Virus record (IMG/VR): IMGVR_UViG_3300037467_000692
Coordinates: 1-41,714 of that record
Direction: 5' to 3' (one strand)
DNA: 41,714 bases
From: a virus
Lineage: Duplodnaviria > Caudoviricetes
Part shown: positions 7,798-9,942 of the stretch, piece by piece
How positions within the stretch are numbered: position 1 is the stretch's first letter
Layout: every line of letters starts with the position of its first letter
Notes under the pieces: generated by a model
What the model saw: only the letters and a program-made list of their open reading frames with translations
Told to the model about the DNA's origin: nothing
Database searches by the model: none
Program-made: the position numbers and the translations under genes

Positions 7798-7824
7798 GGT
7801 GAAGAACCTTTAAAAGTGGGTTGT

Positions 7825-8203
7825 GTTAATTAGGTTTATGCATAGGTGTATTTTAGGTTATTCTGTGCAGTGAATAAAACAAAGACTAGCGAATGTTGCA
7901 CCGGGCACCACATAACACCCGATAAAGCACCGAAAAGGGGTGGTGCAGGTTAATTATAAAAATGGTGGGGTATAAATGAAATTAACATTGGTGCCAGCAC
8001 CGACAGAAATTAACATAAACGCCTATATACCTGTGTGTGCGAAATATATAAAAGAAAAACCACACACACCGATATTCATATGTTAATTGTTAATGTAGTG
8101 TGTATATAGTGCTATAAGTACTTGTTTTATAAGGGCTTTTTCAAAATTTTGCGTAAACATTGCATTAACCGAACTTGTTAATGCCCTATGGCAGCGCATT
8201 AAC
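7825..8203. repeat. AT-rich non-coding region with nine ATTAAC/GTTAAT hexamers; candidate origin or operator array
   Basis: Copies at 7825, 7949, 7981, 8009, 8082, 8089, 8164, 8177, 8198 in both orientations. Confidence 0.6.
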
Positions 8204-8221
8204 ACTGTATGCATTCACAGT
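8204..8221. promoter_or_regulatory. LexA (SOS) box-like palindrome ACTGTATGCATTCACAGT
   Basis: Matches the beta/gamma-proteobacterial CTGT-N8-ACAG consensus with an AT-rich core. Confidence 0.65.
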
Positions 8222-8246
8222 AGTGACGCCATCACTTCACTGACAA
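8217..8246 (-). promoter_or_regulatory. Putative leftward promoter overlapping the SOS box
   Basis: TTGTCA-N18-TACTGT on the minus strand. Confidence 0.4.
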
Positions 8247-8391
8247 GCGAGCGCGGCAGCGAACCGGCCGCAACTAGGCGCCGTACCATGTGGTCACCAC
8301 TATGCTCATAGGGTAGTGAGGTGATAGGTTTCACCCATCGCTCCGATAGAAATAAATTCGTTAGCGATCAGCAAATAGATCGCTTATAGGC

Positions 8392-8420
8392 TTGCAGTCT
8401 TTGAACTGTCAGTCCACAAT
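8392..8420 (+). promoter_or_regulatory. Early promoter P1
   Basis: gcTTGCAG-N17-CACAAT; member of a five-copy family. Confidence 0.6.
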
Positions 8421-8474
8421 ACGTACATCAGCAAACGCAAGCAACCTAACCCAAACAACGTCAAGGAGCCAGCC

Positions 8475-8777
8475 ATGTCCACCGTCACCGCAGCCACCAA
8501 AGCAGCAGCAAACGAAGTCAAAGTTACCGTCAACGAACTGACCCTGCTGCAAGCGATTCGCAGCGCCGCAAAAGAGCTCAAGGTTGACCCGGTCGAGATG
8601 GCCGTGCCTTGCGTCAACCCGTTCGCTACCAAGCAGCAAGGTTCGGGCACGTACGCAAGCGCCATGCGCAAGGGCCTCGTGCAGTCGCAGGACTACGGCA
8701 CCAAGGACCACGCCGTCAGCCTCACCGAACTGGGCGCCGCTGTGCTGAAGCGCGAAGATACCGGCGCCAAGAAGTAA
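8475..8777 (+). CDS. Putative winged-helix DNA-binding protein (100 aa)
   Basis: AAGGAG RBS; C-terminal KGLV...VSLTELGAAVL wing signature. Confidence 0.7.
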   Translation: MSTVTAATKAAANEVKVTVNELTLLQAIRSAAKELKVDPVEMAVPCVNPFATKQQGSGTYASAMRKGLVQSQDYGTKDHAVSLTELGAAVLKREDTGAKK

Positions 8778-8798
8778 CAAGCAACCACGGAGATAACC

Positions 8799-8975
8799 AT
8801 GACTTACGACGAAGCCGTTCAGTACGCGCAAAACATACGTGAAGACGTGAATATTATGCTTGACGAAAGGTCCGGAAAGTACCACGTCATTCGTCTGTTC
8901 GCTGTCGAGCACTGGCGGCAGCACTACAAGGACGTCGCAACGGTACGTGTACAGATGCTAGTCACACTGTTATAG
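8799..8975 (+). CDS. Hypothetical protein (58 aa, MTYDEAVQYAQ...; below the ORF-track cutoff)
   Basis: GGAG RBS, ATG at 8799, TAG at 8973-8975. Confidence 0.65.
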   Translation: MTYDEAVQYAQNIREDVNIMLDERSGKYHVIRLFAVEHWRQHYKDVATVRVQMLVTLL

Positions 8976-9019
8976 GTTGCATGTGGTCAACAGGGGGCGC
9001 TTCGGCGCCCTAAGTCGTC

Positions 9020-9103
9020 GGGGCGGTAGAGAACCGTCAAACTACCTGCTGTTCCGCGAGGCGGCAGGGTGCGGGTAACTACGTAGTCCCGTCCGCTCCA
9101 CCA
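9020..9103 (+). ncRNA. tRNA-like / tmRNA-TLD-like small RNA with alanine acceptor identity and no anticodon
   Basis: GGGGCGG (9020-9026) pairs with CCGCTCC (9093-9099) including G3:U70, followed by A and CCA; T-arm-like stem GCGGG/CCCGT; central helix capped by a GCGA tetraloop. Confidence 0.65.
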
Positions 9104-9142
9104 CGCTGTTACAAATTAATTCAAAGAATCTGGATAAAGTGC

Positions 9143-9171
9143 TTGCGTCACTGGATGTGTTCACGTATAGT
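9143..9171 (+). promoter_or_regulatory. Early promoter P2
   Basis: gcTTGCGT-N17-TATAGT with AT-rich upstream sequence. Confidence 0.75.
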
Positions 9172-9235
9172 TACATTCATACGCAGCACAACCAACCCGC
9201 AAGGGGCCAACCCTCAACACTAGGAGAAATGAGTC

Positions 9236-9472
9236 ATGGCTCACATTCACTTCGGACACTTTACTTACGCCAACAACCTCGGCACTGCCAACACTGCACA
9301 GCGTATCGTCGCTTGGGGCAACATTGACGACAACCTGTTCGACAACACTGACGATGGCTTCATGTACGAGATGGCGGGTTGCCTCGACGCACCGCAGCGC
9401 ATTCCGGCAGGCTCGACCAAGTGCTGGGAATCCAACCCGCTGTACGTCAGCTCCAGCCACATTAACCGCTAA
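9236..9472 (+). CDS. Hypothetical early protein (78 aa)
   Basis: AGGAG RBS downstream of P2. Confidence 0.7.
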   Translation: MAHIHFGHFTYANNLGTANTAQRIVAWGNIDDNLFDNTDDGFMYEMAGCLDAPQRIPAGSTKCWESNPLYVSSSHINR

Positions 9473-9519
9473 AATGTAGCCAAGCGCCCGCAAGGGCGCC
9501 ATCATTTAGGAGAATTGAC

Positions 9520-9942
9520 ATGTCCCAACAACCTCACCCCGTTCTCGGCGTATGGCAACAAGACGATGACGGCAACGCCGTCATGGAATACCTTGGCCGG
9601 CGTCTGGCCATCAAGTGGAACAACGTGCGCGGCATGTATGACGGGTTCATCGACGGCAAGGACGTTGACATGCACTCGCTTGGCACCGCGCAAGGGCTGG
9701 TCGGCCTGACCGGCATGCTGCAACGCGAGGCCCGAAAGCGGTACGAGGCAGAAACGTTCAAGTACAAGCAAGGACAGCGCGTGGAATGCGCATGGTGCGT
9801 GGACAATCAGTTGCGCAGCAACGGCATCATCGAACATGTGCGCTACGTGCCGGAGGCTGGCGACCGTGAGCCCGCCTACCTGATCAACTTCGGTGACGGG
9901 CTGTGCCAAGCCAACGAATCCGAAATCCGCTTAGGGGAGTAA
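9520..9942 (+). CDS. Hypothetical protein, possible C-terminal SH3/Tudor-like barrel (140 aa)
   Basis: AGGAG RBS; YKQGQRV...G.I...YLINF...ESEI pattern. Confidence 0.75.
   Translation: MSQQPHPVLGVWQQDDDGNAVMEYLGRRLAIKWNNVRGMYDGFIDGKDVDMHSLGTAQGLVGLTGMLQREARKRYEAETFKYKQGQRVECAWCVDNQLRSNGIIEHVRYVPEAGDREPAYLINFGDGLCQANESEIRLGE

Follow-up and report, generated by a model that had tools for sequence, protein, structure and literature searches.

Is the tRNA-like stretch at positions 9020 to 9103 of this viral DNA a genuine RNA gene, and what could a phage gain from a tRNA-shaped RNA without an anticodon? The window, that is, the whole stretch of 41,714 nucleotides analyzed, is a 41.7-kb siphophage fragment (estimated 66% complete) with genes for primase, RNase H, MazG, terminase, portal, capsid, and tail proteins, and its terminase is 66–71% identical to those of Seurat-like, PBPA162-like, and Acinetobacter HD01 phages. 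On the plus strand, amid small early ORFs, the element stands 9 nt downstream of a GC-rich UUCG hairpin (8994–9011) that has no U-tract; downstream of the element is a promoter-like hexamer pair with 17-nt spacing (9143–9171), noticed by eye and lying below the scan threshold. A promoter and terminator scan of 7800–9600 returned no promoter-like and two terminator-like matches, none at the element and not above shuffles. Since two other IMG/VR contigs carry the identical region (L018 and L032; 100% over 5016 and 3733 nt, respectively), an assembly error is ruled out. Of all carriers of the element, G005 (L448–L451) is most closely related to the window, with identical gene order and with primase, terminase, and capsid matches at E below 1e-100; despite this close relationship of the genomes, its copy of the RNA is merely 69% identical to that of the window.

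A check of the sequence agreed with the coordinates and stems proposed in an earlier note on this DNA, including the acceptor stem, A73, CCA, 18-nt D-region, 2-nt linker, and 12-nt loop. The parts of the element are as follows.

9020..9103, plus strand: whole tRNA-like RNA gene, 84 nt, single copy in the record
9020..9026, plus strand: 5' strand of the acceptor stem, with G1, G2, and G3, the last belonging to the G3·U70 alanine determinant
9027..9044, plus strand: D-arm, 18 nt, with a 2–3-bp stem (9027–9029 or 9030–9031 with 9042–9044)
9035–9037, plus strand: conserved D-loop CGU, enclosed by the D-stem
9045..9068, plus strand: central helix in place of the anticodon and variable arms, with no anticodon; loop and length not conserved
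9069..9070, plus strand: connector, 2 nt (0–3 nt across the family)
9071..9092, plus strand: T-arm, with a 5-bp stem (9071–9075/9088–9092) and a 12-nt loop (9076–9087)
T-stem pairs of this element: G49·U65, C50-G64, and G51-C63, predicted to be of the tightest EF-Tu class
9081–9083, plus strand: T-loop ACG, predicted to pair with the D-loop CGU
9093..9103, plus strand: 3' strand of the acceptor (9093–9099, with U70), discriminator A73 (9100), and encoded CCA (9101–9103)

Two details of the first description stood in part. The D-region keeps its length of 18 nt but is not stemless, having a 2–4-bp stem inside; the central helix was confirmed, while the GCGA tetraloop drawn at its tip belongs to one of two possible folds, the MFE fold having a 9-bp helix with a 6-nt loop. 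The acceptor, central, and T helices are all present in the MFE fold, and its energy is unremarkable (z, −1.07; 29 of 200 shuffles equally good). A structural descriptor consisting of a 7-bp acceptor with G3·U70, a 5-bp T-stem, and ACCA found one match in the window and matches in 2 of 100 simulated windows. The decisive evidence that the element is real is not its energy but the covariation in its relatives.

As had been expected of standard tRNA finders, the element escapes them: ARAGORN called nothing in the window. Rfam yielded nothing relevant at E up to 5 (window) or 10 (8980–9140), neither RF00005 nor RF00023 matching the element at E up to 10, and no Rfam 15 family was reached at the gathering threshold by the element or by the members tested. 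By blastn, its 3' end was matched in Xanthomonas phage 10KY502B and in Alteromonas phages, where it is unannotated. A scan of IMG/VR with a T-arm pattern of 16 bases, the acceptor being left unconstrained, gave 35 loci (21 members and 14 chance matches), and the pattern scans together yielded at least 41 distinct sequences of 75–92 nt; with six more GenBank sequences and one odd copy (L038), the family comprises at least 48 distinct members (74–92 nt). A covariance model built from 10 members recovered all 41 sequences at 44.7–88.4 bits, ordinary tRNAs reaching 28 bits or less, and family models R1 and R2 found the window's element as the one match there (78.1 and 75.8 bits, respectively). L208 (19.6 bits) was excluded from the family as doubtful. 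Relaxed T-loop scans added, among the matches listed, just two AUG sequences, and the other loci that they returned were rejected as chance matches by descriptor and model. An odd 92-nt tRNA-like gene (L247:167–258), called as Ile(tat) by ARAGORN, scores 26 bits on the family model.

The carriers are unrelated phages, T5-like and N4-like isolates among them, with Escherichia, Salmonella, Klebsiella, Erwinia, Alteromonas, Xanthomonas, and Acinetobacter as named hosts; further carriers point to Pectobacterium (from the phage name) and include one record labelled Microcystis, and the T5-like copy has matches in 103 GenBank records. A host or prophage copy was rejected, as 185,579 prokaryote genomes, scanned twice with exact patterns that diverged copies could escape, gave no copy and the family model gave no match in E. 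coli K-12; plasmids gave short chance matches only. Assembled RNA-seq contigs from four runs span the T5-like copy, such contigs showing neither ends, level, nor RNA origin and therefore being given no weight. No published description of this family was found in a search that covered few subscription papers, and its motifs are absent from the tables, the part compared, of a collection of 10,006 candidate viral structured RNA models (PMC10690425).

In the alignment of 41 sequences, 95.4% of 719 cells are paired (38–53% in slid controls) and 14 of 18 pairs show two-sided changes; the alignment was fitted to the model, and the acceptor and T-stem counts are unchanged in an ends-anchored parse. 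Acceptor pairs 4–7 covary, taking four or five forms each, whereas G3·U70 is constant in 41 of 41. All six model pairs of the central helix changed on both sides. Across the 48 members, this helix has about 6–13 pairs and an apical loop of 3–8 nt without fixed sequence; the loop measures 7 nt in merely 6 of 48, with unrelated sequences, and the alanine anticodon arm (5-bp stem, 7-nt loop) does not appear. With no fixed apical loop, there is no anticodon. The 2–4-bp stem of the D-region also varies in sequence between members, and in the T5-like subgroup the D-arm comes close to the canonical form and includes the GG motif, pointing to a tRNA origin. The T-loop (11 or 12 nt) is nearly invariant and far more conserved than the stems, six of its positions being invariant in the 41 members. 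Acceptor stems range from 6 to 8 bp, several members having 6 bp plus a mismatch; two N4-like copies (L438:424–503 and L440:1454–1533) have an 8-bp acceptor (8+5) and lie between convergent genes behind a terminator-like hairpin. On these comparative grounds, the 84-nt element is a genuine and conserved RNA gene.

The D-region contains CGU in 33 of the 34 members with a 12-nt ACG T-loop (CGG in the remaining one), CAU without CGU in both members with an AUG T-loop, and CGG in all 12 members with an 11-nt T-loop. The triplet compensation from CGU/ACG to CAU/AUG rests on two sequences, perhaps on one event, and the tree of the 41 members, which has long branches, is compatible with one or two origins of the AUG members. 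Since 10 ACG members have CAU elsewhere in the 20-nt region, it is the position of the triplet, not its presence, that carries the pairing argument. The canonical elbow contact of tRNA is G19-C56 (PMC7609411), and we read the pattern in this family, in which the canonical T-loop of decoding tRNA is absent (0 of 48), as an elbow rebuilt around that pair and extended to 2–3 Watson–Crick pairs.

Alanine identity appeared even with the acceptor unconstrained in the search, G3·U70, A73, and CCA being found in 20 of the 21 members from the T-arm pattern; in total, G3·U70 and A73 are kept in 46 of 48 members, most later scans having demanded an alanine-type 3' end and hence being no test of this identity. 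Of the features that mark a tRNA for alanine, G3·U70 is the principal one (PMC9976931). The claim of an anticodon-less RNA with alanine identity therefore holds, and the neighboring pairs that change on both sides indicate that this identity is under selection. The two members lacking it, L038 and L441, both have G73; in L038:2489–2562 (minus strand), the acceptor measures 5 bp and CCA is not encoded, and L441:1490–1572 is the other non-alanine variant. They are either decayed copies or copies that have changed to a different identity needing no anticodon, for example, serine.

Thirteen of the 41 copies begin 5–10 nt behind a tRNA called by ARAGORN, and the others stand alone between ORFs. A pyrimidine, which RNase P prefers, occupies position −1 in 37 of 41 copies. 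Processing by RNase P and at the 3' end as for tRNA is predicted with high confidence, and alanylation by host AlaRS is predicted to be likely; EF-Tu binding is somewhat more probable than its absence, and decoding is almost certainly not a function of the RNA. Affinities for EF-Tu were predicted from Table 2 of PMC3239215, which derives from canonical tRNAs, and ranged from −10.0 to −11.2 kcal/mol (mean, −10.52) for the 46 of 48 members scored, with −11.2 for the window. The corresponding values were −9.96 kcal/mol for 138 of 156 phage tRNAs (those of these loci and of two T5-type tRNA regions), −9.77 for random Watson–Crick stems, and −10.23 (mean) for six phage tRNA-Ala. G-C-rich T-stems could simply support the large loop, and the members are related. 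Ordinary tRNA-Ala genes are also present in three carriers (L211, L216, and L219); thus, the element does not replace tRNA-Ala.

Not one protein family recurs in more than 3 of the 41 neighborhoods, terminase alone is common to more than 3 of 12 whole records, and an SmpB gene was found in 0 of 26 carrier records. With no shared phage partner gene, the partner would have to be a host factor. In the 11 whole records that were scanned, the element occurs once per record. The copy of OSYSP is part of a 350-nt block, missing from T5, between RNA2 and RNAIV. Besides the element, the indel relative to T5 (L160:1790–2140 in OSYSP; L437:1343–1695) holds a 56-codon ORF, trn 2.10.1, and, downstream of the element, ~105 nt of unannotated spacer. 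In AJ604531, a record annotated by hand, RNA2, RNA3, and RNAIV are named, but no RNA is marked at the element. Among T5-like records, carriage amounts to about 77 of 82 for Klebsiella, 16 of 269 for Salmonella, and 5 of 132 for Escherichia, counts of records that include duplicates and laboratory recombinants and are confounded with phage lineage. Comparison of these records shows a patchy gain and loss of what appears to be an accessory element in T5-like phages.

Collectively, sequence comparison supports the fold, selection for alanine, absence of an anticodon, a putative D-loop/T-loop pairing, lack of a phage partner, and patchy distribution. We tentatively favor the explanation that the RNA is a decoy for host proteins that recognize charged tRNA by its acceptor arm and elbow. 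Anti-phage toxins that inactivate tRNA are the most plausible candidates, the specific target being a guess. The stand-alone phage gene would yield a tRNA-derived RNA excised as tRNAs are, host AlaRS would load it with alanine, EF-Tu would hold the alanylated RNA, and the charged RNA would occupy host factors that recognize charged tRNA, with the nearly invariant rebuilt elbow as the likely binding surface. Presumably, alanine was retained because AlaRS needs the acceptor stem alone, which would make it the easiest route to charging and protection without an anticodon. The decoy is ranked first because the element is distributed as an accessory and has lost the features of tmRNA; accessory behavior, as seen in the OSYSP block absent from T5 and the uneven carriage among host genera, is typical of counter-defense genes. 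Phages, including T5, are documented to trigger host defenses that cut tRNA (PMC13434031), but the tRNA nucleases described there cut in the anticodon loop, which the element lacks. Moreover, it is not obvious how a decoy with an elbow unlike that of any host tRNA would serve as a mimic, and the two copies without alanine identity as well as the acceptor stems of 6–8 bp also count against the decoy. Possible, although doubtful, is the wider proposal of a phage-only class of alanyl-RNA with a kissing elbow, carried by EF-Tu, that jams tRNA-targeting immunity or redirects ribosome rescue, sometimes together with a message-only tmRNA piece.

Ribosome rescue by itself, which we consider unlikely, would have the RNA compete, like the DS6A RNA, against host tmRNA for SmpB or for stalled ribosomes, promote tag-less release, or serve as the acceptor half of a phage message-only RNA. 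It ranks a close second because of the DS6A precedent, RNA of this type inhibiting tmRNA in E. coli (PMC4131195, PMC11915505), and because of co-occurring tmRNA pieces: tmRNA-type RNA is found in 5 of 32 carrier records, in G001, a full permuted tmRNA follows the member at a distance of 116 nt, and W06, W07, W11, and G017 have message pieces that bear a tag but show no evident tRNA-like half, ~1 kb upstream in three. The overall layout and alanine identity likewise match the tRNA-like domain of tmRNA, the T-stems of the window's element and E. coli tmRNA differ by one base, and two members match RF00023 faintly (13.6–13.7 bits; E, 0.08). In tmRNA, however, the D-loop is stemless, and SmpB takes the place of the D-stem and binds this loop (PMC3968760), whereas a D-stem occupies that place in the family. 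The canonical T-loop and CGAC are each found in 0 of 48 members and the connector is shorter (0–3 nt), so that the earlier reading as a tmRNA tRNA-like domain without the message was abandoned. Furthermore, the carriers have no SmpB gene in the 26 records searched, 27 of 32 records, including the window, have no tmRNA-type RNA, and an SmpB sponge would harm a phage carrying its own tmRNA. Complementarity to the message pieces is 6–8 nt at most and no better within genomes than between them. Docking on message-only RNAs or host tmRNA was rejected, as complementarity never exceeds 8 nt, and no tag reading frame with pseudoknots was found in the window.

Several tmRNA-related genes were observed in the carriers. 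L005:2647–3064 (G001) is a complete permuted two-piece tmRNA with the tag ANDESFAPLALVA (104 bits on RF04321), located in a phage tRNA cluster. The message pieces at L439:513–720, L443, and L494 (W06, W07, and W11) and at L498/L458 (G017, Erwinia phage Faunus) are unannotated and encode the tag ANDDVVLMAA or ANDSEMRMVA. Two sequences in L439 (382–458 and 1200–1277) are tRNA-shaped, with canonical T-arms and no ARAGORN call, in an N4-like RNA island shared with the message piece. L034:3020–3083, 490 nt downstream of a member, has a tmRNA-type T-arm, a weak RF00023 match (22 bits), and a poor acceptor stem.

It is improbable that the tRNA body acts as no more than a stable chassis, its enlarged T-loop serving as an aptamer that binds a conserved host protein with no part in tRNA attack or mediating dimers through its self-complementarity. 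The conservation of the T-loop beyond that of the stems and the palindrome formed by loop bases 3–12 in the window speak for such a role, but the tertiary fold can account for the conservation, and the compensating D-loop change favors intramolecular pairing. Mimicry of 23S rRNA was rejected: the likeness to E. coli 23S rRNA 1910–1917, a region that we take to be helix 69, amounts to 7 shared nt (8 in one AUG variant) and is no better than chance, 1554 of 2000 shuffles matching as long or longer.

A t-element, that is, a cis-acting signal at which host RNase P and 3' nucleases cut the ends and so split or trim polycistronic transcripts, is quite improbable. Many non-cluster copies are intergenic, with an RBS and start codon within about 30 nt (L001, L011, L023, L035, L228, and L296), and the window's copy follows a hairpin between two early ORFs; such cleavage, however, needs no invariant G3·U70, A73, tight EF-Tu stems, or invariant T-loop. 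Moreover, the 13 of 41 copies directly behind ordinary tRNAs already have cut sites supplied, and two N4-like copies lie between convergent genes. Dedicated aminoacyl donors also show altered D- and T-loops. The earlier suggestion that the RNA might be a dedicated alanine donor for a non-ribosomal, Fem/MprF-like transferase of host or phage, which would suit alanine identity without decoding, is weakened to the point of being very improbable by its predicted EF-Tu-tight T-stem pairs, since Staphylococcus tRNA-Gly donors lose EF-Tu pairs 49-65 and 51-63 (PMC9976931), and by the finding of no shared enzyme or transferase gene in 41 neighborhoods or 12 whole records.

With this family, an RNA gene that annotation has missed is placed in well-studied lytic phages (T5-like, N4-like, and others; over 100 GenBank records). 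The family suggests that the elbow of a tRNA can be remodeled, with a larger T-loop at its core, while alanine identity is retained, and it bears on the function of phage tRNA-like stable RNAs. Because the K-12 coliphage TrudiGerster has the element (NC_105114:77811–77898, 88 nt) and T5 is without it at a clean indel, its role is directly testable in laboratory E. coli, and the covariance model lets annotators detect the family.

Among known RNAs, the TLD-only tmRNA of DS6A (JN698994:28478–28560; PMC4131195, PMC11915505) resembles the family in being phage-encoded and small (about 83 nt), with G3·U70 and A73, no anticodon, no tag frame, and a single helix between D-region and T-arm. The DS6A RNA, however, has CGAC in its D-loop, a connector of 4 nt, and a T-loop of the canonical kind, UUCGA; with the tool used for the window, it reaches 43.2 bits on RF00023. 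The family has a D-stem, a 0–3-nt connector, and an 11–12-nt T-loop that probably pairs with the D-loop; the models do not cross-match, those of the family giving no match on DS6A or T5. The tRNA-like domain of tmRNA (RF00023, RF04321) likewise has an alanine acceptor, a 7+5 acceptor/T helix, and a central helix positioned as a long variable arm, but the family differs from tmRNA in having no message domain, stemless D-loop, canonical 7-nt UUCRA T-loop, or 4-nt connector, and its carriers in having no SmpB gene in the 26 records searched. With ordinary tRNA-Ala (RF00005), the family shares the acceptor identity, D-stem, and T-stem; unlike tRNA-Ala, it has no fixed-size anticodon arm, variable loop, or TΨC loop, and draws no RF00005 or ARAGORN call.

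Allo-tRNAs and irregular 8/4 and 9/3 tRNAs are likewise non-canonical and tRNA-shaped, although the allo-tRNAs described in PMC5389517 keep anticodon arms. Bacterial Y RNAs (PMC4201824), also tRNA-shaped, work with Ro60 and are in Rfam, where the family has no match, and the non-proteinogenic tRNA-Gly of Staphylococcus has lost the EF-Tu pairs that the family keeps; in this group of allo-tRNAs, Y RNAs, and Gly donors, some are non-translating and some lie near toxin-antitoxin genes. The stable RNAs of T5 (AY543070: RNA1, RNA2, RNA3, RNAI, RNAIII, RNAIV, RNA2H, and RNAX) have a similar genomic setting, the element lying between RNA2 and RNAIV in OSYSP and Salmonella phage 5, but none has the sequence or fold of the family, and T5 itself is without the element. 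A phage-made, alanine-accepting, non-decoding RNA is thus already known as a kind from DS6A, as are tRNA-like RNAs of other sequence from T5; the family described here combines a D-stem with a predicted rebuilt elbow and matches neither DS6A, the T5 RNAs, nor Rfam.
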